From assembly GCA_044229975.1 (NCBI GenBank), contig JBGARZ010000001.1, positions 864,001 to 928,000 on the forward strand: a DNA stretch of 64,000 nucleotides, in the 5' to 3' direction. Below are positions 9,067 to 62,761 of this stretch, in pieces. The position numbers and the translations under genes were made by a program. The stretch is from Polyangiales bacterium (GTDB lineage Bacteria > Myxococcota_A > Polyangia > Polyangiales > Ga0077539). The notes beneath the pieces were generated by a model. The model had not been told where the DNA came from and searched no databases. It saw only the letters and a program-made list of their open reading frames with translations. How positions within the stretch are numbered: position 1 is the stretch's first letter; each line of letters starts with the position of its first letter.

Positions 9067-9070
<4 letters not shown>

Positions 9071-12000: not shown

Positions 12001-13734
12001 CTCACCCTCGTCGGTCGCAGCAAGGACGTGGTCGTCGCGGCCAACGGCGAGAACATCTACCCCGACGACGTCGAGCGCGCGCTGGGCGAAGTGTCACTGG
12101 TGAAGGAGCTCGTGGTGCTCGGCATCGCCGACGCCCGCGGCGGAGAGCGCCTCGCGCTGCTCGCGGTGCCCGACCTCGACGACGTGCCCGCGGAGGACCG
12201 CCCGGCCCGTCGCGACAAGGCGCTGCGCAACCTCAAGCACGCGGTGCGCGATCTTCCTCCGGCGTGGCAGCCCGCGGTGGTGCTCCCCTACGACGCAACG
12301 CTCCCACGTACCGCGACGCGCAAGGTGAAGCGCGCCGAGGTGCGCCCGGTGGTCGAGCGCCTCGTGGCGGCGACCACGCCCGTGCGGCCCGGGACGAGCG
12401 GTCGGTCGACACCGGAGAACCCGGTGCGACAGGCCATCGCGGCGATCGCGCGGCGGCCCATCGAGGACGTCACCGAGAAGAGCCGGCTGCGGGCCGACCT
12501 CGGGTACGACTCGCTGATGGCGATGGAGCTCGCGGTGGCGCTGGAGGCCATCCGGGGGCGACAGGTTCCGCAGGAGATGGTGAGCGTCGAGACGGTGGGC
12601 GAACTGGAGCGGGCGCTGGGCTTGGACAGCGAGCTTGCGCGGCAGCACGACGACGAGCGCGCGGTCGCGCCGAAGGACGACGACGACGAGATCAGGCTCG
12701 ACGTCCCGGCGCCGCTCAAGGACGCCGCCAAGTCGGCGCTCGCGGTGTTGCAGCGCGAGTTCTACGCGTCGGTGATGAAGCCCAGGGTGACGGGGCGCGC
12801 GTACATCCCGCACAACCGCAACGCGCTCGTGGTGGCCAACCACACGAGCCACCTGGACATGGGCTTCGTGAAGTACGCCCTCGGCAGCTACGGGAAGAAC
12901 CTCGTAGCCCTCGCGGCGCGCGACTACTTCTTCGACACGCCGCTCAAGCGCGCGCTGATGGAGAACCTCACCAACGTCGCCTCCTTCGACCGCGACGCGG
13001 GCCTGCACGAGACACTCAACGAGGTCGGCGAGCTGCTCCGCGCGGGCAAGACGGTGCTCATCTTCCCGGAGGGCACGCGCAGTCCCGATGGGCGCATCCA
13101 GAAGTTCCTCGGGGCGGTGGGCTTCCTCACGCTGCACTACGAGGTCGACGTGCTCCCGGTGTGGGTGGGCGGAACCTTCGAGTCGCTCCCCAAGACGGGC
13201 CTCGTCCCCAAGCGGCGGGACATCACGGCGCGCATCGGTCCGCCGCTGGAGCTCGATCACATCCGTCGGCTTACGCGCGGGATGAAGCCCGTGGAGTCGG
13301 CGCGCACGGTGGCGCGCCTCGCGCAACGCGCGGTGGAGTCGCTGCGCGACGGGACGGTGCTCGACCTGTCGACGCTCTCCGACGCGAAGGAGGACACGGC
13401 GGCGCGCAAGCATCCGCTGGTGGCGCTCTTCGACGAGCTGCCCGGGCGCTTCCTCAAGGGGAAGGTCGACAACCCCGTGAGCTTCTACTTCACCCTGGGC
13501 GCCGAGCCCGAGGCCAAGTGGACGGTGCAGGTCACGCCGACCGAGTGCCTCGTGGTCAACGGGAAGTCCGACACCGGCACCGCGGACTGCGTCCTCAAGA
13601 CGAGCGCCGAGCTGTTCACGCGCATCGTGCGCGAGGGCTACGAGCCGGGCGTGTCGGAGTTCATGTCGGGGCAGGTGAAGTCCAACGACGTGGGTCTCTT
13701 GCAGACCTTCACGCGCGCCTTCCACCTGGGTTGA
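9067..13734 (+). CDS. elbD: Multifunctional ether-lipid synthase (ElbD-like): acyl-CoA reductase + AMP-binding + ACP + PlsC acyltransferase + SCP2-like domain
   Basis: GGTGFLGK and YTYTK (reductase); YTSGTTGTPKG, GYGLTE, RTGDLG (adenylation); LGYDSL (Ppant Ser); NHTSHLD and FPEGTRS (acyltransferase). The in-frame GTG at 9067 overlaps the elbC stop. Confidence 0.9.
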
Positions 13735-15227: not shown

Positions 15228-16712
<1,485 letters not shown>

Positions 16713-34406: not shown

Positions 34407-36875
<2,469 letters not shown>

Positions 36876-45784: not shown

Positions 45785-47533
45785 ATGCCTCGACCGGATG
45801 CCCGAAGAGCACCGCGCTGGACCCCGCTGCTGGTCGTCGCCCTCGCCGCGTGTGACCTCCTCACGGCGCGCCGACCCAGCGTGGCCATCGGCGGCGAGTG
45901 CACCTTCAACGACGAGTGCACGGCGCCGCTGCTCTGCGCCGCCCGCCGCTGCCGCGCGCCCTGTCGCACCGACCGCGACTGCACCAACAACTGGCGCTGC
46001 CTCTCCGCGGGCATCGTCGACAAGTTCGTCTGCTACGCGCCCGACGACCTCGACACCGCGTGCGTCTGGCCGAGCCACTGCCTTCGCGGTCGCGTCTGCA
46101 CCCCCGAGCGCATCTGCCGCGCCCAGTGCCGCGCCGACTACGACTGCCAGACCATCCGCCGTGACCTCACCTGCAACGTCGACGCGGGGGTCTGCCTCGG
46201 TCACCCGCTCCTCCAACCCGACGGAACCCTCCGCGACACGCTCCGCAACGACGACGGCCCCAACGTCGACCCCATCGTCGGATCGGCCGCGCCCGTCGAC
46301 GCAGGCACGCCGCCCGACGTGGGTTCTCCCACCGATGTCGGGATGCCTGCGGACCTCGGGATGCCCTCCGACCTGGGCACGCTCGCAGACACCGGCACGC
46401 CCCCCGATGTCGGTACACCGGCAGACGCGGGCGACCCGAGAGCCTGCGCGACGCTCACGGGCGGCACCGCCTGTCGTCCGGGCATCGACGTCGGCTGCAC
46501 GGTGACGTCGTTGAGTGCTCGCGGCGGCAACGCCTGCGCGCTCGTGAGCGGCGGCTCGATGCGCTGCTGGGGCTCGAACTTCTCGGGTCAGCTCGGCGTC
46601 GGCGGCACGCGCTCGTGTCTGTGGCCGGGCCTCGTGCCTGCGCTCACCACAGGCGTGTTGGGCATGGCGGTCGGCCAGGACTTCGCGTGCGCGCTCCGCA
46701 CGGGCATGGGCGTCTGGTGTTGGGGCACCAACAGCCGCGGTCAGCTCGCCACCGGCAAGCTGACGCCGAGCCGTGATGTTCCGTTCATGAGCAACGCGAT
46801 GGAGGGGCAGCCCTACGCGGGCAGCGGCCACGCGTGCATCGTCAATGCCGCGACGGCGCAGTGCTGGGGCGACAACTCGTACCGCCAGCTCGGGGCCCTC
46901 TTCGGAACGCGCACCGAATACTTCTCCCCCGTCGCGGTGAGCATCGCGGGTTCGGTGAGCGTGGCGCTCGGTCGCTCGCACTCGTGCGCGGTCTTCTCGG
47001 GCGGGACCGTCGGCTGCTGGGGCAGCAACGCCAACGGGCAGGCAGCTCAGATGATGTCGATGACCATGGTCAACATGCCCGCGGCGGTGACGGGTCTCGA
47101 CTCGATCGAGCAGGTGGTCGCGGGCGACAACTTCAGCTGCGCGCGACGGACGGGCGGCCAGGTGTTCTGCTGGGGCGACAACATGGCGGGGCAGCTCGGG
47201 CGGGGGACGGTCGCGTCGCCGGCGAGCGACGCGGTGCCGCAGGTGGTTCCGACGATCACTGATGCGACGGAGCTCACCGCGGGGCCCGCGGGCGTCTGCG
47301 CCGTGCGGACGGACCAGACCGTGTGGTGCTGGGGCGAGGCGGCGCACCTGGGCGACGGATCGATGGCGGCGCGAGGGGTTCCGGCGCAGGTTCCGGGGCT
47401 GACGGGGGTGCTCGGGCTGGCGGGGTCGGGGCCGTTGTGTGCGCGCCGCGCTGGCGCCGACGTGCGCTGCTGGGGCACCGCGCCGGGTGACGGGACCGCG
47501 AGGTCGATCACGCCCGTCGCGGTGGTCTGGTAG
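45785..47533 (+). CDS. Lipoprotein: Cys-rich N-domain + Asp-periodic linker + RCC1 beta-propeller
   Basis: Lipobox LAAC; ECTFNDEC...; (P.D.G.)n; about 7 CWG.N..GQLG repeats. Confidence 0.85.
   Translation: MPRPDARRAPRWTPLLVVALAACDLLTARRPSVAIGGECTFNDECTAPLLCAARRCRAPCRTDRDCTNNWRCLSAGIVDKFVCYAPDDLDTACVWPSHCLRGRVCTPERICRAQCRADYDCQTIRRDLTCNVDAGVCLGHPLLQPDGTLRDTLRNDDGPNVDPIVGSAAPVDAGTPPDVGSPTDVGMPADLGMPSDLGTLADTGTPPDVGTPADAGDPRACATLTGGTACRPGIDVGCTVTSLSARGGNACALVSGGSMRCWGSNFSGQLGVGGTRSCLWPGLVPALTTGVLGMAVGQDFACALRTGMGVWCWGTNSRGQLATGKLTPSRDVPFMSNAMEGQPYAGSGHACIVNAATAQCWGDNSYRQLGALFGTRTEYFSPVAVSIAGSVSVALGRSHSCAVFSGGTVGCWGSNANGQAAQMMSMTMVNMPAAVTGLDSIEQVVAGDNFSCARRTGGQVFCWGDNMAGQLGRGTVASPASDAVPQVVPTITDATELTAGPAGVCAVRTDQTVWCWGEAAHLGDGSMAARGVPAQVPGLTGVLGLAGSGPLCARRAGADVRCWGTAPGDGTARSITPVAVVW
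45895..45994 (+). repeat. Copy 1 of a 100-bp dispersed direct repeat (copy 2 at 50903-51002)
   Basis: Manual alignment gives 9 mismatches in 100 bp; both copies encode ECTFNDEC.APL.CAARRCRAPCRTDRDCTNNW. Confidence 0.9.
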
Positions 47534-47540
47534 GCGGGCG

Positions 47541-49034
47541 CTACGGCGGCCACTGCTCGTCGATACGCCGCCGACCGTGCGGTACCCGGGGCGTCGCTGG
47601 AGCGGTCGCCGTCGGCCTCACGGGTCGAGCGACACCAGTCGCTGCGGGAGTCGCAGTAGGCGCCGCGTCCTGCACACGACGAACGAGCGATCGCGAGATG
47701 CGCAGGTCGCCGTCGGCGCGCACCGAGTCGACGAAGGGCAGGTAGCCGTCGGCCTCGACGCGCAGCGAGTGAACGCCGCCGCGCGCGACCTGGGTCGAGG
47801 CGTGCCCCGCGCCGAGCTCGGCGCCGTCGAGAAGGATGCGCGCCTCGACCGGTGAGAAGTCGAAGCCCAGCGTCACCATCGGCGTGGCAACGGTGGGAGG
47901 CGGTGCAACGGTCGGAGCCACGCGGTCGCGACGGGTGAGCGCGAAGCCGCCCGCGATGAGCCCGACGGCGACGACCGCGATGACGAACGCGAGGGGCCAG
48001 CGCGTCGGCGGCACCCGGGTCGGCGGCGCTTCGATGGGCGTCCTCTCGACGGGCGGCGGCGGGGTGACCAGCGGCGGTGCCTCGGCGGTGGCGGCGATGT
48101 CGACCGGCGTAGCGACCACGGGCGCAACGCCGGGAGTCGGTGCGCCGTTGAGCGCGTCGATGAAGGCCTCCATCGAGGGGAAGCGGTTTGCGGGCTCGGT
48201 GGCGAGCGCGCGCATGAGGGCGGCGACGAGCGCGGGGTCGAGTGACGGGCATCGCGCGCCGAGGTCGGCGACGGGCTCGGAGACGCGGCGCACGAGCAGC
48301 GCGTGGGCGGTCTCGCACTGGTGCGGAATCTCCCCGCAGAAGGCCTCGTAGAGCATCGCCGCGAAGGCCCACTGGTCGGCGGCGTGGGTGATCTCCTTGA
48401 GGCCCCAGGTCTGCTCCGGGGCCATGTACGCGGGCGTTCCGAGGATGGCGCCGGTCGCGGTGATGGACTTCGCGCCCTCCTGGGAGATCGGTCGCGCGAT
48501 GCCGAAGTCGAGCACCTTCGGCGTGAGGGAGCCGTCGTCGCCCTTCACGAGGAAGACGTTGTCGGGCTTCACGTCGCGATGAACGATGCCCCGCGCGTGC
48601 ACGAAGGACAGCGCCCGCCCCACCGGAATCACCAGCGGGAGCAGCGCGGCCGGATCACACGGGACGCGAGCATCGATCCAGTCGGCGAGGGTCGATCCCG
48701 AGAGAAACTCCATCACGATGAAGACGAGCGGCCCCTCCTGCCCCGCGTCGAACACCTGAACCACGTTGGGATGGGTGAGCCCGGCCATGGTCTTCGCCTC
48801 GCGGCGGAAGCGCGCCACGAGCCCGGCGTCGACCGTCAGCGCGGGGTGCAACACCTTGAACGCCACGCGCCGATCGAGCGTGAGGTGGGTGGCCTCGTGC
48901 ACGGCGCCCATGCCACCGGCGCCGAGCATGCGCTCGATGCGATAGCGACCCGCGATGATGCGACCGGGTTCGAGCGAGGGCGCGAGCTCAGGCGCGTCGG
49001 CGTCGGTGTTGGGTTCGTGCTGCGCCGCGGTCAT
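47541..49034 (-). CDS. Ser/Thr kinase with a TM helix and a C-terminal PEGA-like domain
   Basis: GAGGMGAV, HRDVKPDN, DFG, APE; TM; FSPVEARILLDG...HSLRVEADGY. Confidence 0.9.
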   Translation of the reverse strand: MTAAQHEPNTDADAPELAPSLEPGRIIAGRYRIERMLGAGGMGAVHEATHLTLDRRVAFKVLHPALTVDAGLVARFRREAKTMAGLTHPNVVQVFDAGQEGPLVFIVMEFLSGSTLADWIDARVPCDPAALLPLVIPVGRALSFVHARGIVHRDVKPDNVFLVKGDDGSLTPKVLDFGIARPISQEGAKSITATGAILGTPAYMAPEQTWGLKEITHAADQWAFAAMLYEAFCGEIPHQCETAHALLVRRVSEPVADLGARCPSLDPALVAALMRALATEPANRFPSMEAFIDALNGAPTPGVAPVVATPVDIAATAEAPPLVTPPPPVERTPIEAPPTRVPPTRWPLAFVIAVVAVGLIAGGFALTRRDRVAPTVAPPPTVATPMVTLGFDFSPVEARILLDGAELGAGHASTQVARGGVHSLRVEADGYLPFVDSVRADGDLRISRSLVRRVQDAAPTATPAATGVARPVRPTATAPATPRVPHGRRRIDEQWPP

Positions 49035-49041
49035 CGCAAGG

Positions 49042-50463
49042 TCAGAAGGTACCGCGAAGCGAGGCGCCGCCGGGGCTCAGCGACACGTCCCACCCCACGG
49101 GGCGATCGTAGCGATCGGAGGGGTCGGCGCGGAGACGGAGCACAGTGCCGACGATGACGCCCGCAACGCCGATACCGATCAATGAGCCACCGACGATGGC
49201 TCGCACCGAGGCCGCAGTGAACTCGCTGTCGTACGGGGCGCGCTGTGCGTTGAACTCCGCCGTCGTGGTGGAGCATCGACCCGTGAGGTCCTGTTCGCAG
49301 GCGGTCATTCGAGCACCCACTTCGTCGATACGAGATTGTGCGTCGGCCCGATCACTCAGCCCCGTGATGAGCAACGGCACGCCACCCGCGATCAGCGCGA
49401 GACCCGCCCCACCGAAGACGTACGCCACGGTTCGTTGCCGACGCACTCGCGCGGCGTGCTCGCTGCGCAGCGTGGTCGTCGCGTCGAGCCACACCCGCGC
49501 GGTGTTGTCCCCTGGCGACAGCTCCACCGACCGCTGCGACGGAACGTATCCCGCGTGCGCCACCCGGAGCTGATGCCTCCCCGGCGGGACGCGCGCGCTC
49601 CCGTCCACCACCACGCTCCGCCCGTCGACGCTCACCGTCGGGAACGTCACGTTGCTCTCCACCCGCAGCGTCGCCGCGACCGATGGCGGCATCGACGGCT
49701 CCCATTCGAGCGGGGCGTCCATCACCACGCCCGCGGTCCCCATCACCACGTTGTGCGCGTAGGTCACGTAGCCGGGGCGGGCGACCTCCAGGCGATGCGG
49801 CCCTTCGGTGAGCATCAGCGGTTCGGTGAGTGGTGTGCGGGCGACCTCGACTCCATCGACCCGCACGACGGCTCCGTCGGTGTCGCAGCGCAGCGCGAGC
49901 GGGGCCCGCTGCGGGTCGAGCGCGTCGGTCAGCACGAGCTCACGTCCACCGGTCACGTCGACCGTGGTCTCGCGCGGGACGTGGCCCGGCGCTTCGAGGC
50001 GCACCCGTCGCGGACCGGCCGACACCGGAACTCCTCCGCGCGCACGCTCTACCGGGACGTCGCGCCCGTCGACGGTCACGCGCAGACCGATCGTGGGAGC
50101 GGTGACGCGGAGGGTTCCGATGCGTTCGCGGAGGCGGGCGAGGCGCTCGTCGAGCTCACGGGCGCGCTGGGCGACGGTCGCGGGCGTCGCGCCCATGCGG
50201 TAGGCGGTGAGCGCGTCGCGCGCCTCGACGAAGCGGCCGAGGGCCTCGTACACGGCGCCGAGGTTGTAGAGCAGGTTGGGGTTGTGGCTGAGGTCGTAGG
50301 CCCGCTGAAACTCGACGAGCGCCGCCTCGTAGTTGCCGTCGGCGTAGAGGGACACGGCGCGGGCGAAGCTGGCGCGCGCATCGCTGGATGGTGGCGTCTG
50401 CGCGAGCGCGGCGGAGCCGTGGAGGACGGCGGCGAGCGCCAATGGGAGGTGGGGGTGACGCAT
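49042..50463 (-). CDS. Secreted TPR + 3x PEGA-domain protein with a C-terminal hydrophobic hairpin ending in Phe
   Basis: Signal peptide (ALA-Q); TPR (YEAALVEFQRAY..LLYNLG); V.VDG...G.H.L.V..PGY repeats; ends ASLRGTF. Confidence 0.85.
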   Translation of the reverse strand: MRHPHLPLALAAVLHGSAALAQTPPSSDARASFARAVSLYADGNYEAALVEFQRAYDLSHNPNLLYNLGAVYEALGRFVEARDALTAYRMGATPATVAQRARELDERLARLRERIGTLRVTAPTIGLRVTVDGRDVPVERARGGVPVSAGPRRVRLEAPGHVPRETTVDVTGGRELVLTDALDPQRAPLALRCDTDGAVVRVDGVEVARTPLTEPLMLTEGPHRLEVARPGYVTYAHNVVMGTAGVVMDAPLEWEPSMPPSVAATLRVESNVTFPTVSVDGRSVVVDGSARVPPGRHQLRVAHAGYVPSQRSVELSPGDNTARVWLDATTTLRSEHAARVRRQRTVAYVFGGAGLALIAGGVPLLITGLSDRADAQSRIDEVGARMTACEQDLTGRCSTTTAEFNAQRAPYDSEFTAASVRAIVGGSLIGIGVAGVIVGTVLRLRADPSDRYDRPVGWDVSLSPGGASLRGTF

Positions 50464-50630
50464 GAGAGGGAGTGCCCGCGCGACGATCGATGGTCGGAGG
50501 GGACGGGTCAAGACACCGGGCGGTGGTGTCCGAGTTTGAGTCGCTGTGCCCCGGCCGAGAGTCCGCTGCGTCCTACTTTGGAAGCGGAGGAGAGTGATCG
50601 GTGTCCTCCGTCGGACACCACTCACAGGGC

Positions 50631-50743
50631 CTGGGATTCGGAGTAGGCGTCGGCGGCGTGGGCCGGATGGCCACGTCGGCGGTCCCCACGAGGGACCGAC
50701 GACGAGCACCTCGCGTCGCCACGACGCCTACTCCGAATCCCAG
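50631..50743. repeat. 113-bp element bounded by perfect 22-bp inverted repeats (MITE/REPIN-like, or a structured RNA)
   Basis: CTGGGATTCGGAGTAGGCGTCG (50631-50652) is the exact reverse complement of 50722-50743; two internal hairpins. Confidence 0.85.
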
Positions 50744-50813
50744 ACCGGGCAGACCTCGTTGCATCCGACGCCCCACCGAAGCGATCATTCGTCGTCGAGT
50801 GCCCCTCGTCGCC

Positions 50814-51260
50814 ATGCGCCACCACCCCCTTCTCAGCCTCGCGCTCTGCCTCACCTCGCTCTTCGGGTGCACCCTCGAAGCCGAGCGGCGCGGCCTCCTC
50901 GCCGAGTGCACCTTCAACGACGAGTGCGAGGCGCCGCTCATCTGCGCCGCGCGCCGTTGCCGCGCCCCGTGCCGCACCGACCGCGACTGCACCAACAACT
51001 GGGTCTGTCGCTCGGCCGGTCAGGAAGATCGCCTCGTCTGTTACGCGCCAGGGACGCTAGACCACGGCTGCGTGCGCGACAGCGACTGCGAATCCCCCTA
51101 CGTCTGCGGCACCACCCGCGAGTGCATCTTCCAGTGCCGCACCGACTACGACTGCCGCATCGCGTACCCCTACGAGCCCAACGCCCGCTGCGTCGTCGCC
51201 GACCACACCTGCGACGCGCACCCGCGCTACGCCGCGGACGGCGGCGCTACGAACGACTGA
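50814..51260 (+). CDS. Small Cys-rich lipoprotein, paralogue of the N-domain of 45785-47533
   Basis: Lipobox LFGC; 31 of 33 aa identical to the core of the paralogue. Confidence 0.8.
   Translation: MRHHPLLSLALCLTSLFGCTLEAERRGLLAECTFNDECEAPLICAARRCRAPCRTDRDCTNNWVCRSAGQEDRLVCYAPGTLDHGCVRDSDCESPYVCGTTRECIFQCRTDYDCRIAYPYEPNARCVVADHTCDAHPRYAADGGATND
50903..51002 (+). repeat. Copy 2 of the 100-bp dispersed direct repeat (copy 1 at 45895-45994)
   Basis: About 91% identical to copy 1 by manual alignment. Confidence 0.9.
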
Positions 51261-52032
51261 CCCGCTCGCCCGGGTCCTGTCGATAGAAGTCGGCCAGCAG
51301 CGCGTACAGGTCGGGTAGCGCCCGCTTCAACGGCACCGGTCGCTCGAAGAAGCTCTCCGTCGCCACCGCGAAGAACTCCGCTTCGTTCTTCGCTCCGTAG
51401 GGGTCGATCACGCGGCGCACGTCGGGGTCGTGGTCCTTGAGCGCGAGGAAGACCTCCGAGCACACCTCGGCCCAGCTCCGTCGCTCGGCGCTGCTCTCCA
51501 GCGGAGGCGTCCCGTCCACCTCGCCGCCCAGCATGTCGATCTTGTGCGCGAACTCGTGAAACACCACGTTGCGCCCGTCGTCCGGGTCGCGCGCGCCGCG
51601 CTTCACGGCGTCCCACACGAGGATCACCGGACCACCCTGGTGCGCCTGCCCGAGGATCGCTTCGGACTCCTCCACCACCGCGCCACCGCGCTCGAAGATG
51701 CCCGCCGTGCGCTCCGCCGCGAAGACCGTGCTCGGGTACACGAGGATGCTCTCGACGTCGTCGTAGAGATCGTGGTCGCGGCCCAGCAACAACAGACACG
51801 CCTCGGCCGCGACGGTCACCCTGATCTCGTCGGTCATCTCCAGACCCCCGCAGCCCTCCCAGTGCTTCTCCGCGATGAACACCTGCACCAGCTCGCGCAG
51901 GCGCCCGCGCTCGGCGTCGTCGAGGCCGCGCCAGTGGGCGACGTTGCGCTCGATGATCGCCTGCCACTCCGCGGGGAAAGACTCTTCGAGGATGCGCGCC
52001 CGACGGCGCTCGGTGAGCCAGGTGAACAGCAT
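51247..52032 (-). CDS. MtfA-like M90 zinc metallopeptidase
   Basis: FIAEKHWEGCGGLE, ILVYP, NVVFHEFAHKID (HExxH), YGAKNEAEFFAVATESFFE. Confidence 0.9.
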   Translation of the reverse strand: MLFTWLTERRRARILEESFPAEWQAIIERNVAHWRGLDDAERGRLRELVQVFIAEKHWEGCGGLEMTDEIRVTVAAEACLLLLGRDHDLYDDVESILVYPSTVFAAERTAGIFERGGAVVEESEAILGQAHQGGPVILVWDAVKRGARDPDDGRNVVFHEFAHKIDMLGGEVDGTPPLESSAERRSWAEVCSEVFLALKDHDPDVRRVIDPYGAKNEAEFFAVATESFFERPVPLKRALPDLYALLADFYRQDPGERVSRS

Positions 52033-52163
52033 GCGAGGGAGACTCGCACAGCCGATGGCCCTTGCGCGCGGGCACCGACCCGGCACCATCCGCGGCTGTG
52101 GGTCACGGCGTAGTCATCGCCCTGACCATTGGGGTTCCACCGCAACGTAGGGAGACGACGCCG

Positions 52164-53800
<1,637 letters not shown>

Positions 53801-53801
<1 letters not shown>

Positions 53802-54262
53802 TGGCGCCACAACGGCTGTCGCGGGAGGACTTCCTCACGGTGGTGCGCCTCGCGCCGCTGGTGTCGCTCGACCTCGTGGTGAGCAACGCCTGCGGTGAGG
53901 TGTTGGTGGGTCTCCGTACCAATCGACCCGCGGAGGGGTTCTGGTTCGTCCCGGGCGGGCGCATCCAGAAGGACGAGCGCATGGACGCGGCCTTCCGTCG
54001 GCTCACGGGCGAGGAGCTCGGTCGCCCGATGGGGCTCGCCGAGGCGTCGCTGCTGGGCGTCTACGAGCACCTGTACGAAGACAACTTCGCGGGCGAGCCT
54101 GGAGCCTCCACCCACTACGTCGTCATCGCCCACCGGCTCACGCTCGACGTCGAGCTCGCGTCACTGCCCGGCGCGCAACACGCCCGCTGGAAGTGGATGT
54201 CCGTGGAGGCGCTGCGCGCCGACGAGACGGTGCACGCCAACACGCGGGCCTACTTCCCGTGA
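53801..54262 (+). CDS. gmm: GDP-mannose mannosyl hydrolase (Nudix)
   Basis: PLVSLDL, RTNRPAEGFWFVPGGRIQKDE...AFRRLTGEELG, GVYEHLYEDN, THYVV, QH, VHANTRAYF. Confidence 0.85.
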
Positions 54263-55539
54263 GGCGCGGTCAGCGTCTCGGCCCGCCGTCGCCCCGTCAG
54301 TAGCCACACCTCCATCTCCCCCTTGCCCTTCACGGTGATGACCCCGCGCGCCGTCATCTCGTAGCGCGACGCCAGCCGCTCGTGCACCGCCGCCGTCACC
54401 TGGATCTCCCCGGGGATGCCGTGCGACTCCATCCGACTCGCGGTGTTTACCGCGTCGCCCCACAGGTCGTAGATGAACTTCCGCTTGCCGATCACGCCCG
54501 CGACGGCCGGGCCCGTGTTGATGCCGATGCGCGCCTTCAGGGGATAGCCCGTCTCGGCCGACACCCGCGCGAGCACCACCCGCATCTCCAGCGCGAGGTC
54601 GGCGATCACCTCCGCGTGGTCGTCGCGCGCCTCGGGCAGCCCGCACGCGACCATGTAGGCGTCGCCGATGGTCTTGATCTTCTCGACCCCGAAGCGCAGC
54701 GCCAGCTCGTCGAACTCGGAGAAGATGCGGTTGAGCACCTGCACCAGCGCCTCGGGCGACAAGCGCGCGCTCAGCTCGGTGAAGCCCACCAGGTCGGCGA
54801 AGAGAACCGTCACCGAGGGGAAGCCCTCCGCGATGTGCTGCTGCCCGCCCTTCAAGCGCTTCGACACCGACGCCGGGAGGATGTTGAGCAGCAGGCGTTC
54901 GGAGCGCTCGTGCTCTTCGGTGAGGCGCTCCTCCGCGCGGATCACGTCGCCGCGAAAGAGCTGCACCAGATAGATGAGCGTGCCGAAGGTGAGCGCCACC
55001 GCCGTGAGGCTCAGCGCGTGCTCGACCGGCATGGAGAAGCGAAACACGCCGCGCTCGGGGATGAAGTCCTCGACCACCGCGAAGAGCACCACGCTCAGCG
55101 CCGCGAAGCCCCACCGCACCCAGCGCTCCTGCTCGGAGAAGAGCAGGAACCCCAGCGCCGCGAAGACGAAGTAGTAGAGGTGGAAGCCCGCGCCGCTCCC
55201 GACGAGTGCCGACACCGCGACGATGAGCGCGTGCGCGGGGCCGAGCAGCATCACCCGCGCGGCCCGGTGCCACCCGCGGGCGTTGAGCGCGATGGTGAGC
55301 CCGAAGCACACGACCGCGACGGCGTTGATGGCCGAGCCCGACCAGTAGGTCGACAGGTCGGCGACGGCGTAGCCGATCACGAAGCTCGTGCAGGTGAGCG
55401 CGCCAATCGCCGCGGTCTGGTTGCTCAGGTGGATGCGCCGCTGCTCGGCCGGGTCCTGATCGAGAGCGCCGACCGCGCCGACGGCGTCGAGCAGTCGAAG
55501 CAACACCGGGCGGGGCGGAGCCTCTGCGGTCGGCGACAC
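54250..55539 (-). CDS. Membrane adenylate/guanylate cyclase (class III) with a ~6-TM sensor region
   Basis: LLLNILP, VLFADLVGFT, KIKTIGDAYM, KFIYDLWGDAVNTASRMES; start inferred at GTG 55539. Confidence 0.9.
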   Translation of the reverse strand: MSPTAEAPPRPVLLRLLDAVGAVGALDQDPAEQRRIHLSNQTAAIGALTCTSFVIGYAVADLSTYWSGSAINAVAVVCFGLTIALNARGWHRAARVMLLGPAHALIVAVSALVGSGAGFHLYYFVFAALGFLLFSEQERWVRWGFAALSVVLFAVVEDFIPERGVFRFSMPVEHALSLTAVALTFGTLIYLVQLFRGDVIRAEERLTEEHERSERLLLNILPASVSKRLKGGQQHIAEGFPSVTVLFADLVGFTELSARLSPEALVQVLNRIFSEFDELALRFGVEKIKTIGDAYMVACGLPEARDDHAEVIADLALEMRVVLARVSAETGYPLKARIGINTGPAVAGVIGKRKFIYDLWGDAVNTASRMESHGIPGEIQVTAAVHERLASRYEMTARGVITVKGKGEMEVWLLTGRRRAETLTAPHGK

Positions 55540-55637
55540 GGACCCATCGTACGTCACAAGAGCGAGGTCCGACTCTCCGCATTTCTCGCGCCGGAGGTCG
55601 GGCACCCAAGTACCATCGCGGCCGTCACGAGCGGACG

Positions 55638-57014
55638 ATGAGCGACCCGAGCTCCCCACCCGATGCCTTCGTCGGCGAGACCCTCCTCGGGCGCTACCTC
55701 GTGGAGGAGTGCGTCGCGCGCGGTGGCTTCGCGGTGGTCTATCGCGCACGACACCTGGAGCTCGATGTTCCGGTCGCGATCAAGGCGCTGACGGACGTCG
55801 ACCGCTACGGGGGCGAGTCGGGCAAGGCGTACCTCGCGCTCTTCAAGCAGGAGGCGCGCACCGTCGCAGCGCTCAATCACCCGGCCATCGTCCGCGTGCT
55901 CGACTACGGCGCGCTCGGTGACCGTCCGTGGATCGCCATGGAGTGGCTCGACGGCACGACGCTGGAGGAAGACCTGCGCGCCCACGAAGGCATCGGGCGA
56001 TCGCCGCGCGAGGTGCTCGACCTGCTGCGCCCGGCCTTCGACGCGCTCGCGTGCGCTCACGAAGCGGGCGTCAGCCATCGCGACATCAAGCCGTCCAACC
56101 TGATGCTGGTGAAGGCGCGGCGCGGGGAAGGCTCGCTGCGGGTCATCGACTTCGGCGTCGCCAAGGTCGACGAGCCCGACCGCGACGTCGGCAGCGGGTC
56201 GACGCGAACGGCGGCGGCCTTCGTGGCGTTCAGCACGCAGTACGCCGCGCCCGAGCAGGTGGCGCGCACCCGCACCGGACCGTGGACGGACGTGCACGCG
56301 CTCGCGCTCGTCCTCGTCGAGGCGCTGGTGGGTCACCGCGCATACGGCGACGCGGACGGGGCCGAGCTCATCGAGCGGGTGCTCACGACGCCGCGACCGA
56401 CGCCCGCGCGGGTGGGCGTCGACGTGGGCCCCTGGGAGTCCGTGCTCGCGCGCGCCCTCGAACGCCTGCCCGCCGCGCGCCCCGCCAGCGCCGCGGTGTT
56501 CTGGACGGAGCTCGCCAGCAGCGTCGAGGAAGCACAGGCCGCGTGGGTCGCCTCGCCGCGAGCGCGCACGCCGACATCGAACGCATCGAGCGCCGTCACC
56601 CGCGTCGGAACTGGCGAGACCGCCGCCTCGCTGCCCTCCGTCGCGATCGTCGTCCCCGCGCCGACCACCTCGACCGCTTCGCTGCGCGCCTCGCTGATGC
56701 CGCCTCTGCGTGGCACCTGGCTCGTCGCCGCGTCGCTCTTCGTGGCGCTCGCGGCGCTCGCCACCCTCCTGCGCGGACCCCACCGCGCGCCGCAACCGAC
56801 GCCGGCGTTCATCCACACGCCCATCGCGCTGGCCCCGGTCGCGCAGCCCGCTCCCCTCGCCCCGATCGCTGCGCCCACCGCGGCACCGCTGGCGCCGCCT
56901 CCCCCGCCGTCGAAGCTCGCCGCGCGTCGGCCCCTGCGACCGCGACCGATCACCGACGCGAGCACCGCGGTCGTGGCGACGCCGCCTTCCGAACCGACGC
57001 TGGTCGTCGAGTGA
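55638..57014 (+). CDS. Membrane-anchored Ser/Thr kinase
   Basis: ARGGFAVV, VAIK, HRDIKPSN, DFG, APE; TM helix; Pro-rich tail. Confidence 0.9.
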   Translation: MSDPSSPPDAFVGETLLGRYLVEECVARGGFAVVYRARHLELDVPVAIKALTDVDRYGGESGKAYLALFKQEARTVAALNHPAIVRVLDYGALGDRPWIAMEWLDGTTLEEDLRAHEGIGRSPREVLDLLRPAFDALACAHEAGVSHRDIKPSNLMLVKARRGEGSLRVIDFGVAKVDEPDRDVGSGSTRTAAAFVAFSTQYAAPEQVARTRTGPWTDVHALALVLVEALVGHRAYGDADGAELIERVLTTPRPTPARVGVDVGPWESVLARALERLPAARPASAAVFWTELASSVEEAQAAWVASPRARTPTSNASSAVTRVGTGETAASLPSVAIVVPAPTTSTASLRASLMPPLRGTWLVAASLFVALAALATLLRGPHRAPQPTPAFIHTPIALAPVAQPAPLAPIAAPTAAPLAPPPPPSKLAARRPLRPRPITDASTAVVATPPSEPTLVVE

Positions 57015-57985
57015 GGGCGCGACCGCTCGCCCTCGCCCTCGTCACGATCGCCGCTCCCGTTGCGGCGCAGGAGACGCCCGAGGAGACCGCCCGTCGCGAG
57101 CTCATCGCGCAGGCCGAGCAGAGCGCCACGGCTGCCGACCACGCCCGCGCGCTGGAGCTCGCCCGCCGTGCTTCGGCCATCCGCCCGTCCCCGTCGCTCA
57201 CGTGCTTCCTCGCCCGTGAGCACCGCGCGCTCGACCAGCTCGTCGAGGCCCTCGACCTCGCCCGCGCCAGCATCCGCGCCGTCGACGCCGACCTCACGCT
57301 CCGCAACCGCGACACCATCCGTCAGGCGTGTGAGGCCGTTCGCGCGAGCGTCGAGCCACGCCTTGGCCGCCTGGAGGTCTCCGTCGTCGGCGGGGCGACC
57401 GATGCCCTCGTCGTGCGCCTCGACGGCCGCGCGCTGTTGCCCGAGCTGCGTGGCGTGGCGATGCCCGCGATGCCGGGTGAGCACCGCGTCGAGGTCGAAG
57501 CGCCAGGCTTTCTCCGCGCGACTCGAACGGGCGTCGTGAGCGCGGGTGAGCTCCTCCGCGTCGAAGTTCACCTCGAACGCGAACTCCCGCCACCACCTCC
57601 CGCTCCCCTCACCGTGCTGCCAGGGGTCATCGCGCCGCCCTCCCACCGGGTGCGACGCGCCATCGGCCCGGGTCCGTGGATCATCGGCGGCGCCGGCATC
57701 GCAGGCGTGATCTTCGCGGGCATCAGCTATGAGCTCGCGACGAGCGCCCAGTCGGAGCGCGACGCCGCCTGCTTCGCCGACGGCACCTGTCGCCCCGAGG
57801 CGGTGCCCCTCGACGCTCGCTACGTCGACTGGCTCGCGGCCACCAACGCCGCGTCCGTGGCGGGCGGCGCGCTGCTGGGCGGAGCGGTCGTCTGGTACCT
57901 CGTGGCGCGGCTCACGGGCACCTCCGAGGCGGCCCCGCGGCCCACCTTCACCGCTGGGCGTCTGGGTGTCAGCGTTGCGTTCTAG
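57011..57985 (+). CDS. Secreted TPR + PEGA-like protein with a C-terminal hydrophobic hairpin ending in Phe
   Basis: GTGA-coupled to the kinase; signal peptide (VAA-Q); TPR-like helices; VVRLDG...PGEHRVEVEAPGF; ends GVSVAF. Confidence 0.8.
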   Translation: MRARPLALALVTIAAPVAAQETPEETARRELIAQAEQSATAADHARALELARRASAIRPSPSLTCFLAREHRALDQLVEALDLARASIRAVDADLTLRNRDTIRQACEAVRASVEPRLGRLEVSVVGGATDALVVRLDGRALLPELRGVAMPAMPGEHRVEVEAPGFLRATRTGVVSAGELLRVEVHLERELPPPPPAPLTVLPGVIAPPSHRVRRAIGPGPWIIGGAGIAGVIFAGISYELATSAQSERDAACFADGTCRPEAVPLDARYVDWLAATNAASVAGGALLGGAVVWYLVARLTGTSEAAPRPTFTAGRLGVSVAF

Positions 57986-60191
57986 CGCGCTGCTCGCGCT
58001 GCTCGTCGCGCTCGTGGGCTGCACCCGCGACGAGTGGCGTTTCCGTCCGATCGTCGATGCCGCGGCGCCCGGCGACGTCGTCGACGCCGCCGCGGACGTT
58101 GCGGTCGCCGACGTGCCCGCCATCGACACACCGCAGGCATCGGGGCGCGTCGTGCAGTTCGTCACCGCGGCGCGCATCACCTACGCCGTGCGCGACGATG
58201 GGCTCGTCTTCGCCGCGGGCGAAGGCGCTGGCGCCTTCGAGGGCTACGAGGGAACCCACCGCAACACCTTCGTCGCCATCCGCGGGCTCACCGACGTCGC
58301 CGAGGTGTCGAGCGCCTCGCAGTCGCCCCACGTCGTGTGCGCGCGTCACGCCGACGGAACCGTGACCTGCAAGGACGGCAGCACCGACCCGATCGCCGTC
58401 GACGGCGTTCGCGCGCGACGCATCGCCGGTCGCTGCGCCCTGCTCACCGACGGCGGCGTCGCCTGCTGGGACCTCGCGCAGTTTCGCGCCGCGCCCGTCG
58501 ACCTCACCGACGTCGTCGCCCTCGCGGGCAACGGCAGCCTCCACTGCGCCCTGCGCCGCGGCGGAACGGTCTGGTGCTGGGGCGAGGTCGGCGCCGTGCT
58601 CGACGTCCCCGCGACCACCCGCACCACGACGGCACCCGTGATGGTCCCGGGCATCACGACGGCCACGTCCCTCGCGGTCGGCCGCTTGAGCGCGTGCGCC
58701 GTCGTCGACCTCGGCGCGGTGGTCTGCTGGGGTCGACGCTCCATCATCAACGGCGGGCCCGACGCCAACACCGAACGCCCGATCGCGATCACGGGCGCGC
58801 GCGGCGTTCGGACCCTGACGCCCAACTCCGCACTCACCGAGCGGGGCGAGGTTCTCACCTGGGGCGGCGCCCACGGAACGCGCGGCGACGGCACCTACGG
58901 CGCGGCGCCGACGGCCTTCGTCGCACCGGGCGTCACGGCGCGCGCCATCGCCGAAGGTGACGGAGAGCTCCGGGTCTGCACCATCGACGAGGAGGGTCAC
59001 GGGTCGTGCTGGGGCGAGGACTTCGTCGGCGAGCTCGGCGTCGGTGGTGGCATCGAGCTCCACCCCCTCCCCGTGCTCGCGCACCCCGAAGACCCTGCCG
59101 ACCCCGCCAGCCTCGACGACGTCGTCGACACGATGCTCTCGGGCGAGGCGCAGTGTGCGCTCCTCGGCGACGGGTCGGTGCGCTGCTGGGGCTGTCCCGC
59201 GCACGGCACGACCGGCGCCGGGGTCATCGCGTCGTGGCCCTCGTGGCAGCCCACGCCCACGCCCGTCGCGGGCCTCACGGACGTCACCGCCCTCGTCAGC
59301 TTCGGCTCGACGCAGAACGAGACCTTCGGCGCGCTCCTCCGCGACGGCACGGTGCGCCTGTGGGGCCAGGGGATGGCCGGAGCCCTTGGCAACGGCGGCG
59401 TCATCTCTCGCGCGCGACCGGGTGCGCCCGACGGCCTCGCCGACGTCGCCCGCCTCGTCATGGGCGAGTACCACGCGTGCGCGATCGCCCGCGACGCCAC
59501 GGTGTCGTGCTGGGGCATCGGCACATCCGGGCAGCTCGGCGACGGCAGCACGTCGAGCTCGTCGCGACCCGTTCCGGTCGCGCGCCTCACCGACGTCGTC
59601 GACCTCGCGCTCGGCACCGACGTGTCCGTGGCGCTACGCCGCGACGGCTCGATGCACCTGTGGGGGCGCTCGCAGTGGCTGCTCTCCACGTCGACGCTCA
59701 ACCCTTCGCCCATCGCGCTGCCGACCCTGCCCGACGTGGTGGAGCTCGCCATCCTGACGCCGCACAACTTCCGCCAGCTCTGCGCGCGCCGCAGCGACGG
59801 TCATGTGAGCTGCCTCGGTGCGAACCTCCCCTCCGCCGACCGCTGGTTCGACCTCGGGCTGGAGGGCGTCACGCAGATCTCGGCGAGCGCGTCGGGCACC
59901 GGCTGTGCGCGCCACGCGGATGGTGGCGTCTCGTGCTGGGGAATCAACCGCAACGGCGAGCTCGGCGACGCGCGCGTCTCGCAAGCCGACGGCTACCATC
60001 CTCCGCAGCGGGTGCTGCTCACGGGCGACACCCCGCTCGACCGCGTCACCCGCGTACGCGCCGGCATCGGCAACGTCTGCGCGGTGCGCGACGACCACAC
60101 GCTGTGGTGCTGGGGCGCGGTGAACCACGGCGTCACGGGCCGCGGCCGCGCCATCGTCTCGCCCCTCCCCCGCCGGGTGCTCGGTCTCTGA
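57975..60191 (+). CDS. Lipoprotein with two RCC1-like beta-propellers
   Basis: Lipobox LVGC; DAAAPGDVVDAAADV linker; more than 10 G.V.CWG repeats; start TTG 57975 or GTG 57966. Confidence 0.85.
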   Translation: MRSSALLALLVALVGCTRDEWRFRPIVDAAAPGDVVDAAADVAVADVPAIDTPQASGRVVQFVTAARITYAVRDDGLVFAAGEGAGAFEGYEGTHRNTFVAIRGLTDVAEVSSASQSPHVVCARHADGTVTCKDGSTDPIAVDGVRARRIAGRCALLTDGGVACWDLAQFRAAPVDLTDVVALAGNGSLHCALRRGGTVWCWGEVGAVLDVPATTRTTTAPVMVPGITTATSLAVGRLSACAVVDLGAVVCWGRRSIINGGPDANTERPIAITGARGVRTLTPNSALTERGEVLTWGGAHGTRGDGTYGAAPTAFVAPGVTARAIAEGDGELRVCTIDEEGHGSCWGEDFVGELGVGGGIELHPLPVLAHPEDPADPASLDDVVDTMLSGEAQCALLGDGSVRCWGCPAHGTTGAGVIASWPSWQPTPTPVAGLTDVTALVSFGSTQNETFGALLRDGTVRLWGQGMAGALGNGGVISRARPGAPDGLADVARLVMGEYHACAIARDATVSCWGIGTSGQLGDGSTSSSSRPVPVARLTDVVDLALGTDVSVALRRDGSMHLWGRSQWLLSTSTLNPSPIALPTLPDVVELAILTPHNFRQLCARRSDGHVSCLGANLPSADRWFDLGLEGVTQISASASGTGCARHADGGVSCWGINRNGELGDARVSQADGYHPPQRVLLTGDTPLDRVTRVRAGIGNVCAVRDDHTLWCWGAVNHGVTGRGRAIVSPLPRRVLGL

Positions 60192-60194
60192 CCG

Positions 60195-61190
60195 TCAGCT
60201 CTGCGGAACCATCGCGACGTCCGCCCCCTCCGCGAGGCGGAAGCGCACGCCGCCGTCGTAGCGGTCGAGCAGCGCGCCGCCGTCGATGTCCGCGCGCACG
60301 AGGTCTTTGCGGGTGCGAAAGACCAGCGTGTTGAGCTCGACGCGGCCGCCCTGCTTGCCGCCCGGCCACACCCGCGGGATGAGCACCTCGTCGGGCACGA
60401 GATCACCCGCCGCGTGCGGTGCCGGAGGGAAGAGCAGCGTCGCCACGAGGTCGCAGCGTCGATCGGCGAGCCAGAGCGTTCGCTCCCACGAACCGTAGCC
60501 CACGGTCAGTCGCCCGCCGCGCGGAAGAAATTCCAACCGTGCCGCCCGCGGCAGCTCGACCCCCGACTCCGGGGCTGTCGCGGTCTCAGGCCCCGTCGAC
60601 GCCGACACCAGCCGAAGCGATTGACCGAGGTGACGCACCACGGTGCCCGAGCGCACGGCCACCACCGCGGCCTCCTGCAGCGGGCCGTCGCAGTCCACCC
60701 CCGCGACCCCCGTCTCCATCACCAGCGCACGCTGCACCAACGAAAACGTCAGCGCCGCCGCTGCCCATCCGGGGATGTGCAGGTCGTCGCGCTCGTCGCC
60801 GCCCACCGTGAAGGGGCTCTCCGCGATGCGATAGAACGCCCCCGCCGCCGACTCGACGCCCCACACACAATCCGCGCGAACGACCTTCGGCGCCGGCGTG
60901 CTCACCACGCGAAAGGCCCGCCCGCACACCGCGAGCCCGTCGCCATCTCGCAGCGTCGCGACGGTCTGCACGGGCGCGTCGTTGACCCGCACCGGCGCGC
61001 GTCCGAGCACCATGAGCTCGACGCCGTCATCCACCGGTCGCAGCAGGAGCTGATGTCGGCTGACCCGCGAGTCGGGCAACACCACCTCGCAGTCGGTGCT
61101 GCGCCCGAGGAGCAGCCCGCCGTGCCGGACGAGCACCCGGCCGAGGTCACCCTGGAGCCAGTACTGGCGGGCCTGGTCGCGTTCGCGCAT
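60195..61190 (-). CDS. FHA-domain protein with a second degenerate FHA-like region and a C-terminal OmpR-like winged helix
   Basis: LGRSTDCEVVLPDSRVSRH (FHA GR/SR); C-terminal VPDEVLIPRVWP...NTLVFRTRKDL resembles Trans_reg_C. Confidence 0.7.
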   Translation of the reverse strand: MRERDQARQYWLQGDLGRVLVRHGGLLLGRSTDCEVVLPDSRVSRHQLLLRPVDDGVELMVLGRAPVRVNDAPVQTVATLRDGDGLAVCGRAFRVVSTPAPKVVRADCVWGVESAAGAFYRIAESPFTVGGDERDDLHIPGWAAAALTFSLVQRALVMETGVAGVDCDGPLQEAAVVAVRSGTVVRHLGQSLRLVSASTGPETATAPESGVELPRAARLEFLPRGGRLTVGYGSWERTLWLADRRCDLVATLLFPPAPHAAGDLVPDEVLIPRVWPGGKQGGRVELNTLVFRTRKDLVRADIDGGALLDRYDGGVRFRLAEGADVAMVPQS

Positions 61191-61213: not shown

Positions 61214-62761
61214 TCAGTAGTGCACGCCCGACGCGATCTGCCGCGAGCCCGGGAACCCGGTGCCCGCCCACACGCCGTCGAGGAGGTCCATGGCGAGTCC
61301 CCAGCGACGCACGGCCGTCCGACCGCGCGCCCCGTCGAGGTCGTAGCGCACATCGCGCAGCGACGTGATGACCGCGGGCCGGAAGAACATCGCGTGTGCC
61401 AGCTTCACGCGGAAGAAGTCCTCGGGAGAGACCAGCGCGTCACGGTCGAGTCCGCGCACTGGTCCCTCCATGGGCATCGCCTGGCGCAGACGCCACGGCA
61501 TCTTCTCCAACGCGATGGCCGCGAAGCTATGGTGATCGGCCGTGTGGAAGGTCGACACCGTGCAGAGGTACGTCGCCACGGCGCGCGCGAGCACACCGCC
61601 CCGCGCGATGGCGCCGCCGTCGGGGTAGCCCGGCAGCCACGCGGCGATGTGGTCGGCCCAGGCGCGCACGTGCACGTCGTCCGCGGCGACGCCGTCGAGC
61701 GCCTCGGCGACGAAGCCCGTCCACGCCTGCAACCACACCTGACGAAAGCGCCCGTACGAAACATGCGCTCCGGTGAAGAGGTCGCCGAAGCGCCACGCGG
61801 GCCACGCCGGGTTGCGCGCGACGCCCTGTCGACCGGCGACCACCATGCGGTGCATCCCCTCGGTGGTGTACGGGAAGGGGTTGTAGAGCTCGCGCTGCGA
61901 GTTGTGGATGCTCGATCGTCGGTGATGGATCACCGACTCGTGGAGCCCGAGGGTGAAGCGGGTGTGGGGTTCGATGAGCCGCCGTACCGGGTGACGCCGC
62001 GGGAGCACGGAGCGCGTGACGGCGTTGATGACGTCGGCCGGGAAGTGCAGCCGCGGATGCGCCGCCGTGACAAGGCGCACCTGCGCCGATTGCAGCGCGT
62101 ACCAGCGAGCGAGCCGCCACGCGTCGCCCTCGTCGGGCGTGACGATGCGCGCGTGCACCCGGATGGCCGCGACGGACCACGGGTCGCCCTCGCGGCGCAG
62201 CAGCACGACCACGGGCGCGGTGTGGACGCCCGGCAGCAGCTCGTCGAGCGCCGCGACGCTGAAGTCCATCGTGGCGTACACGCCGGGTGAGCGCGCCATC
62301 AGCGGATGGAAGTCCTCGCTCGGGGCGCACTCGTCGGCGAGCGCGACAAACTGCCCGAAGCTCGTGGTGGTGAGCAGCGAGGCGAGCTCGCCGTCGTCGA
62401 CGTCGACGAGTCGTGGCCCGCGCAGGGCCTGCGACGCCGCGGCGGGCACCTCGCTGACCATCTGCCGCAGGTAGCGCGAGACGATGAAGCGCACGTAGTC
62501 GACCCGATCGCCCGCCGGGACATTGAGCACCGGCGCATAGAACTCCGGGTCGATGACCGGCTCCTGCGGCCACGGCCCTCGCACGCCCCGCGGGTGCCGC
62601 GGAGCAGGCGCGTCGATGCGCCCCGCGCCCCAGGGCATCGGGCTGAGGCGCGGCGAGTCGGTCCACGTGGTGGGGGCGCGGAGGAGCGACCCCATGAGGG
62701 AGAGCGCGTCGTCGGAGGCCGGGCTGTCGGGTGCGGTGGTGGTGCGGGCGGGGGCGTTCAT
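61214..62761 (-). CDS. Divergent lipoxygenase-family protein
   Basis: WRLARWY...AHPRLHF...LPRRHPVRRLIEPHTRFTLGLH aligns with the LOX W.LAK...H..TH...L...HP..LL.PH...T..IN signature; TVSTFHTADH with TAS..HAAVN; C-terminal IASGVHY with IPNSINI. Confidence 0.7.
   Translation of the reverse strand: MNAPARTTTAPDSPASDDALSLMGSLLRAPTTWTDSPRLSPMPWGAGRIDAPAPRHPRGVRGPWPQEPVIDPEFYAPVLNVPAGDRVDYVRFIVSRYLRQMVSEVPAAASQALRGPRLVDVDDGELASLLTTTSFGQFVALADECAPSEDFHPLMARSPGVYATMDFSVAALDELLPGVHTAPVVVLLRREGDPWSVAAIRVHARIVTPDEGDAWRLARWYALQSAQVRLVTAAHPRLHFPADVINAVTRSVLPRRHPVRRLIEPHTRFTLGLHESVIHHRRSSIHNSQRELYNPFPYTTEGMHRMVVAGRQGVARNPAWPAWRFGDLFTGAHVSYGRFRQVWLQAWTGFVAEALDGVAADDVHVRAWADHIAAWLPGYPDGGAIARGGVLARAVATYLCTVSTFHTADHHSFAAIALEKMPWRLRQAMPMEGPVRGLDRDALVSPEDFFRVKLAHAMFFRPAVITSLRDVRYDLDGARGRTAVRRWGLAMDLLDGVWAGTGFPGSRQIASGVHY

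Follow-up and report, generated by a model that had tools for sequence, protein, structure and literature searches.

A candidate envelope-spanning signalling unit of tethered Ser/Thr kinases, TPR-PEGA adaptors and swappable lipoproteins in Myxococcota

How can a kinase that exposes little more than a tether outside the membrane receive a signal from there? The question is raised by a stretch of 64,000 nucleotides from a Polyangiales bacterium (GenBank assembly GCA_044229975.1, contig JBGARZ010000001.1, positions 864,001 to 928,000 of the forward strand), here called the window and numbered from its first letter. A cassette of three genes occurs twice in it (cassettes 1 and 2, Table 1), encoding a Hanks-type Ser/Thr kinase, a protein with TPR and PEGA domains, here called the adaptor, and a lipoprotein with an RCC1-like beta-propeller. 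Myxobacteria have up to hundreds of Hanks kinases (223 in this genome), a large class of which has only a tether outside the membrane, and a recent kinase atlas, in the portion accessible to us, lists 'transmembrane only' Myxococcota kinases without input (10.1101/2025.01.12.632604). On balance, we favour the view that the cassette is a modular, envelope-spanning signalling unit, in which the kinase tail is docked in an outer-membrane-anchored TPR-PEGA adaptor that is paired with a swappable lipoprotein. It is a real, phylum-wide and apparently undescribed variant of trans-envelope Hanks-kinase signalling.

The kinase-adaptor unit and its lipoprotein slot

The gene pairing, the domain make-up, the intact kinase motifs and the variable third gene of the cassette are direct observations. 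The six genes lie where the initial annotation had placed them, as gene calls and Pfam domains confirm, and the two arrangements that it described were found in the DNA. The stop and start codons of cassette 2 overlap, by 4 bases (GTGA) between kinase and adaptor and by 20 bases between the end of the adaptor and the RCC1 lipoprotein; in cassette 1, 7 bases separate adaptor and kinase, both on the minus strand, and the kinase converges on the plus-strand RCC1 lipoprotein gene with a gap of 7 bases. A chance neighbourhood as the origin of this convergence was ruled out, given that the same genes are linked in other orders in relatives. Both kinases retain the Lys, HRD, DFG and APE motifs and are therefore of the Hanks type. 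Identity between the two cassettes is 33% for the kinases, 31% for the adaptors and 31% for the RCC1 lipoproteins; as judged from their sequences, the cassettes are old paralogues. Named homologues come from Polyangiales, and the whole of cassette 2, including an adjacent gene for a putative FHA-winged-helix protein, is kept in a relative (genome G151).

A census of this genome (7743 genes by our own gene calls, searched with profiles built from the window proteins) returned 223 kinases, 43 RCC1 genes and 61 adaptors. A kinase lies directly upstream of 35 of the 61 adaptors, on the same strand, and directly downstream of two more, against a background of 1.7% of all genes. Sorting of the kinases by class showed an adaptor next to 36 of the 76 that combine a membrane helix with a short Pro/Ala/Thr ectodomain, compared with 2 of the 74 remaining membrane kinases and 2 of the 73 that lack a helix. 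Adaptor profile matches were present in 109 of 151 genomes of the phylum, this one included. Outside this genome we sampled 80 of 150 listed matches (846 in all), picked by score and flank length from 32 genomes, and added 8 loci on further contigs, the yield of pattern scans of public collections (4 + 4). Where enough upstream DNA was available, a kinase lay directly upstream of 47 of 87 adaptors and directly downstream of 5. Because kin are not independent, these counts from other genomes are descriptive only. Kinase and TPR-PEGA adaptor form the fixed unit of the cassette.

Some members occur apart. Several small (3-4 Mb) genomes (L119-L123, L126, L127, L139, L144) have adaptors without a nearby kinase, some of them still followed by a lipoprotein. 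In the window, a third membrane kinase with a bare tether (15309-16712, plus strand) has no adjacent adaptor; it is one of 40 such orphans, which may use adaptors encoded elsewhere.

The position behind the adaptor is frequently taken by a lipoprotein. Of 39 genes located behind an adaptor, on its strand and no more than 200 bases away, 21 have a lipobox, compared with 529 of 4091 comparable genes (12.9%), by a crude pattern that both misses and overcalls. Pfam assigned 27 of the next genes of this genome to RCC1 (3), FGE-sulfatase (2), FG-GAP (2), Stig1-like (2), lamin-tail, DUF5122 and others (once each), or to no family (10). In other genomes a lipoprotein followed 28 of the 85 adaptors with downstream DNA, and an RCC1 gene followed none. 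The initial annotation had proposed a recurring triad of kinase, TPR-PEGA protein and RCC1 lipoprotein; the recurrence of the first two stands, and RCC1 as the defining third member was ruled out, since it is the next gene at 5 of the 37 kinase-adaptor pairs of this genome and at none of the sampled loci elsewhere, and the cargo varies. RCC1 is absent from the phylum sample yet present at 9 of 30 loci of the family to which the window belongs; it is thus a cargo at family level, and the conserved unit consists of kinase, adaptor and a lipoprotein slot. Two kinase-membrane helix-RCC1 fusions are encoded in the genome, one of them in the window (34407-36875, minus strand), with RCC1 directly outside the helix, which suggests that RCC1 can serve as a kinase sensor domain.

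The N-terminal heads of the lipoproteins may be matched to the adaptors. Over 49 pairs of adaptor and lipoprotein, the sequence that follows the lipidated Cys varies with the adaptor hairpin loop once TPR and PEGA are taken into account (r 0.125, p 0.002), a small effect from one of nine comparisons made, and no signal was seen between head and TPR or PEGA similarity. The RCC1 lipoprotein of cassette 2 has a head similar to that of a 118-residue lipoprotein which is encoded behind a paralogous adaptor and lacks RCC1. The Cys-rich domain of cassette 1 is found both in its RCC1 lipoprotein and alone in the small lipoprotein of the window, with heads that are 56% identical. A gene with this head lies within two genes of all three 3-PEGA hairpin adaptors of this genome. 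In relatives, 11 of 31 3-PEGA adaptor matches have one at a distance of at most 4 kb, and adaptor, kinase and these lipoproteins are near each other in varying order.

The kinase tail and the TPR groove

In the 89 kinases paired with an adaptor, the ectodomain has a median length of 102 residues, of which about half are Pro, Ala or Thr, and a short distinct motif at its end. In line with the kinase-adaptor contact envisaged by the initial annotation, a model of residues 20-192 of adaptor 2 with residues 425-458 of kinase 2 scored 0.66, compared with 0.02 for the best of three controls. Residues 452-458 of the kinase occupy the TPR groove in this model, three runs of which share 97% of contacts, with a partner pLDDT (predicted local distance difference test) of 49-50. 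The mark used for this score is reached by 116 of 157 solved pairs and 2 of 215 mismatched pairs, counts that are only approximate for the alignments used here.

Tail and TPR also vary together. With kinase-domain similarity removed, tail similarity follows TPR similarity over the 89 pairs (r 0.158; 0 of 300 shuffles as high), while the tail against its own kinase domain, given TPR, yields 0.007 and the linker control is not significant. After 20 near-orthologous pairs were dropped, r was 0.099 (p 0.003, 69 pairs). In the same 69 pairs, the 17 groove columns taken from the model follow the tail more closely than do random sets of columns outside the groove, 6 of 500 of which match them; without the window's subfamily (64 pairs) 2 of 500 do, and the groove columns do not track the linker. 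Four kinases that lie two or three genes from an adaptor, outside the covariation tests, have tails that by eye are typical of that adaptor subfamily.

There is evidence on the other side as well. The tail/TPR covariation is weak and comes from kin that are not independent. Within this genome alone it falls to r 0.065 (p 0.057), whereas tail and hairpin give 0.127 (p 0.023), and in the 52 pairs of other genomes the linker control is significant too (r 0.136). The complex score may itself reflect likeness to solved TPR-peptide complexes, because these are common among solved structures and the tail of kinase 2 ends in VVE, which resembles the EEVD of Hsp90. On the whole, docking of the kinase tail in the TPR groove of the adaptor encoded beside it stands as a prediction of the complex model.

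Adaptor location, output and competing readings

In the AlphaFold2 model of adaptor 2 (49 sequences, pLDDT 87.5), a five-helix TPR is followed by a PEGA sandwich, and a Pro linker connects these to two long helices and a terminal beta-hairpin. For the whole model, Foldseek returned PEGA-like and TPR matches only, one of them at E <0.001, and none for the helical hairpin. The TPR resembles short peptide-binding TPRs (Tah1 with an Hsp90 peptide, HOP, Sgt2), every match being at E >0.01. No Pfam family covers the hairpin, which in the Atlas occurs only in unnamed Myxococcota clusters; DUF5683, at 0.81 in the Atlas, is only a lead. A signal-peptide-like start is present in 53 of 58 adaptors. In both window adaptors the initial annotation had rightly recognised such a start, two hydrophobic helices around a Cys pair and the ends LRGTF and VSVAF. 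A hairpin was detectable in 136 of 138 proteins: its loop contains no Cys in 39, two in 97 and an odd number in none, and in 94% the loop carries no positive net charge; the helices are 20-24% Gly. Adaptor variants behind kinases (G000:C19, C13, C20, C23; L012, L004, L020, L022, L024) apparently have one C-terminal helix or a different end rather than the two-helix hairpin.

With TPR-PEGA and the disulfide loop presumably both outside the cytoplasm and one hydrophobic helix between them, which is impossible for a hairpin in the inner membrane, anchoring in the outer membrane is likely, as the best fit to the topology read from the sequences. It is further supported by the same TPR-PEGA module heading a TonB-plug protein: at locus L032 of this genome (1608-4538; G000:C38), a 976-residue fusion of TPR, three PEGA domains and a TonB-receptor plug stands directly behind a kinase and is followed by a convergent Stig1-repeat lipoprotein.

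The proposed output of cassette 2 is encoded by the gene that converges on it at 60195-61190. In the model of its product (pLDDT 91.6), an FHA domain and another sandwich resembling it are accompanied by a strand-helix-hairpin domain, the secondary-structure pattern of which fits a winged helix. Gly29, Arg30 and Ser44, which we take to act in phosphothreonine binding, are invariant in 81 homologues. Among solved structures EmbR was the top match, and the DNA-binding domain of SaeR matched at E 0.039. Against this assignment, the window copy has no Trans_reg_C profile match and the winged helix is only weakly profile-supported, with weak matches in 19 of the 81 homologues (E up to 0.5, best 9e-4). 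Three of four paralogues have a same-subfamily adaptor beside them, the family has such an adaptor within 1.5 kb at 16 of 30 loci (3 of them in this genome), and 16 of 66 FHA genes are within three genes of an adaptor. From this linkage and the fold, the protein is likely to be the phospho-dependent transcriptional output of cassette 2.

We infer the outer-membrane location, lipoprotein binding and signal flow of the cassette as follows. The inner-membrane kinase would send its Pro/Ala/Thr tether into the periplasm, where the adaptor encoded next to it is predicted to hold the end of the tether in its TPR groove. The Gly-rich helical hairpin of the adaptor would cross the outer membrane, with the disulfide loop outside, and the lipoprotein may bind this loop via its short N-terminal head and present a cargo domain, here the RCC1 propeller. 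Ligand binding would cluster the adaptors and bring the kinases together for trans-autophosphorylation, and in cassette 2 the phosphorylated kinase could recruit the FHA-winged-helix regulator encoded next door, so that transcription changes. A wider version can be offered only tentatively: Myxococcota would possess phylum-wide plug-and-play receptor-kinases, with a novel class of helical-hairpin outer-membrane adaptors that read one barcode in the kinase tail and another in the head of a surface lipoprotein, dozens of insulated channels with exchangeable sensors across both membranes, and dedicated FHA transcription factors.

Several features of the adaptor weigh against anchoring in the outer membrane. 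The terminal beta-hairpin of adaptor 2 was modelled at pLDDT <50. The second hairpin helix reaches the hydrophobicity of ordinary multi-pass inner-membrane helices (median +0.72 vs +0.61), and hydrophobicity alone does not separate the two locations. Of 136 adaptors, 123 end in Phe, Trp or Tyr, the terminal aromatic residue of the beta-signal suggested by the initial annotation, and -5 and -7 are hydrophobic, but the match to the published signal is only partial: Gly, not an aromatic residue, stands at -3 in 87 of 136, and Gly at -6 is found in only 52. The signal of proteins inserted by the beta-barrel assembly machinery (BAM) is G-x-x-aromatic-x-aromatic in the part of PMC13067283 that was available. 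The helix and the C-terminus would suit an adaptor that sits in the inner membrane, or is re-entrant from the periplasm, and acts as a co-receptor beside the kinase for periplasmic cues, the outer membrane playing no part. Once the signal peptide is cleaved, however, the acidic loop with its strictly paired Cys would then end up cytoplasmic, the tether of about 100 residues would be needless for a neighbour in the same membrane, and the TPR-PEGA module is also found on the TonB-receptor plug protein; we hold such a placement to be unlikely. The terminal aromatic residue also fits an adaptor that is mainly an export or display factor bringing its cognate lipoprotein to the cell surface, in the manner of Slam, while the tethered kinase monitors or regulates assembly without sensing a ligand. 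The excess of lipoprotein genes after adaptors far above background, the covariation of head and hairpin loop, and the 21 of 87 adaptor loci of other genomes with no kinase within about 6 kb, which also count against a kinase-centred unit, are compatible with this role. It is quite unlikely, nevertheless, considering that the adaptor model contains no beta-barrel, that the link to the kinase is stronger than that to the lipoprotein (47/87 vs 28/85) and that FHA genes cluster at adaptors.

It could also be argued that the kinase-adaptor pair has simply been much duplicated and that the RCC1 lipoproteins, members of a different expanded family, lie nearby without any relation to it. The scarcity of RCC1 as the next gene, the convergent layout of cassette 1 and the 33 of 41 RCC1 genes that lie beyond two genes from any adaptor would agree with this. 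RCC1 is enriched near adaptors, however, with 8 of 41 non-kinase RCC1 genes within two genes (p 3e-5) and with 6 of 55 lipoproteins near adaptors carrying it vs 17 of 1036, and in relatives the kinase, the adaptor and these lipoproteins stay linked although their order changes, which makes mere neighbourhood highly improbable. The trans-envelope unit remains the reading that we prefer. The earlier idea of a single pathway keeps the recurring kinase/TPR-PEGA unit, the predicted tail docking, the tail/groove covariation and the outer membrane as best topology fit; its RCC1 receptor has become one cargo among several.

Related systems and the neighbourhood in the window

TagQ/TagR(-TagST)-PpkA-Fha1 is described, in the part of PMC13713981 that we could consult, as the sensor module of the H1 type VI secretion system (T6SS) of Pseudomonas aeruginosa. 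There, as proposed for the cassette, a lipoprotein and a periplasmic partner act on the periplasmic part of an inner-membrane Hanks kinase, and an FHA protein provides the output. In PpkA, according to the same portion of that source, the periplasmic part is a folded domain whose pocket receives a loop of TagR, whereas kinase 2 has a bare tail and the pocket is predicted to be in the adaptor. No PpkA-type folded receiver was found in the cassettes, kinase 1 having a PEGA domain and kinase 2 only its tether. Nor is the adaptor a TagR-like activator, being a TPR-PEGA protein with its own membrane hairpin and present in dozens of copies with matched tails; FGE-sulfatase, the family of TagR, appears in cassettes only as lipoprotein cargo (2 of 27 next genes). 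No association with T6SS genes was seen within the window. TagQ/TagR-PpkA is the closest known system, with similar logic, an unrelated adaptor and a reversed peg and pocket.

In TonB-dependent cell-surface signalling of the FecA-FecR-FecI type, an outer receptor makes a periplasmic docking contact with an inner-membrane transducer that leads to a transcriptional output. As proposed, the cassette shares this logic of receptor, docking, transducer and output, and one adaptor carries a TonB-receptor plug. In contrast, the transducer of the Fec type is an anti-sigma factor and the receptor a 22-stranded barrel, whereas the cassette has a Ser/Thr kinase, a helical hairpin as the usual anchor and a separate lipoprotein as candidate sensor; neither window cassette contains a plug and beta-barrel receptor, an anti-sigma factor or an extracytoplasmic function (ECF) sigma factor. 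Hanks kinases of the receptor type carry their own ectodomain, as in PknB/PrkC (PASTA) and PknD (propeller), and PknH is paired with EmbR. The cassette kinases have the same fold and a single membrane helix, and PknH-EmbR couples a kinase with an FHA and OmpR-type DNA-binding regulator, as is proposed for cassette 2, but in the cassette the sensor would be split onto separate proteins and the putative regulator is FHA-first, without the domain order of EmbR. Pfam found no PASTA domains in the window kinases, and their NCBIfam PknB scores (268 and 183) are below the cut-off of 450.

Slam, which has lipoproteins as partners, likewise combines a TPR domain with an anchor in the outer membrane. 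Its C-terminal part is a beta-barrel, in contrast to the two helices and one beta-hairpin of the adaptor model. SlyB-type helical-hairpin proteins, in the accessible part of PMC13067283, offer a precedent for Gly-rich helices that span the outer membrane; the adaptor also has Gly-rich helices and differs in not being a lipoprotein. The initial annotation knew of no functional description, and our literature search likewise found no paper describing the cassette, although subscription papers and preprint supplements outside its reach may mention the pairing. The passages on PEGA seen in PMC7159879 and PMC10600179 concern other systems, and the anti-sigma factor with TPR-CHAT in the portion seen of PMC11506125 is unrelated to the cassette. 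If the tail-to-TPR code is true, each tether-only kinase gains a partner, a candidate sensor and sometimes an output, which would explain how sensorless kinases receive outside signals and would make kinase input testable with short peptides. The hairpin, if it is indeed an outer-membrane anchor, would add a large family of helical outer-membrane proteins.

Table 1. Positions in the window of the genes and segments of the two cassettes and their associated genes.
Feature	Position	Strand	Basis
RCC1 lipoprotein 1: lipidated Cys23, Cys-rich N-terminal head, acidic linker, RCC1-like beta-propeller	45785..47533	+	Pfam WD40_RLD/RCC1; lipobox read from sequence
Hanks Ser/Thr kinase 1: kinase domain, one membrane helix (near residue 348), PEGA ectodomain, Pro/Ala/Thr tether, short C-terminal tail	47541..49034	-	Pfam Pkinase and PEGA; catalytic motifs
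TPR-3xPEGA adaptor 1: signal peptide, Gly-rich helical hairpin around Cys pair, terminal Phe	49042..50463	-	Pfam TPR, PEGA x3
Small lipoprotein: Cys-rich head domain alone	50814..51260	+	13 invariant Cys in 21 copies; weak DUF7107/Dickkopf-like matches only
Hanks Ser/Thr kinase 2: kinase domain, one membrane helix, Pro/Ala/Thr tether of ~80 residues, no folded ectodomain	55638..57014	+	Pfam Pkinase; motifs; alignment
Predicted C-terminal docking peptide of kinase 2, residues 452-458	56991..57011	+	Predicted TPR-groove interface; covariation
TPR-PEGA adaptor 2: signal peptide, five-helix TPR (23-117), PEGA (119-187), Pro linker, helical hairpin (221-302), terminal beta-hairpin with final Phe	57011..57985	+	AlphaFold2; Pfam PEGA weak, E 0.009
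RCC1 lipoprotein 2: lipidated Cys19, short peptide head, long RCC1-like propeller region	57966..60191	+	Pfam WD40_RLD/RCC1
Putative FHA + FHA-like + OmpR-type winged-helix protein	60195..61190	-	Pfam FHA; model; weak Trans_reg_C in homologues

The Cys-rich head lipoprotein, the FHA-winged-helix gene and the kinase-RCC1 fusion had been missed in the initial annotation. Around cassette 2, a gene for a MASE7-adenylate/guanylate cyclase (54250-55506, minus strand; Pfam) is divergent from kinase 2, and a gene for 515 residues (61214-62761, minus strand), with only a faint lipoxygenase match (E 0.57), is conserved at 79% beside cassette 2 in G151. At a distance from the cassettes, the window encodes a 1555-residue fusion (9067-13734, plus strand) of fatty acyl reductase, AMP-binding, carrier and acyltransferase domains, which we take to resemble myxobacterial ether-lipid enzymes.

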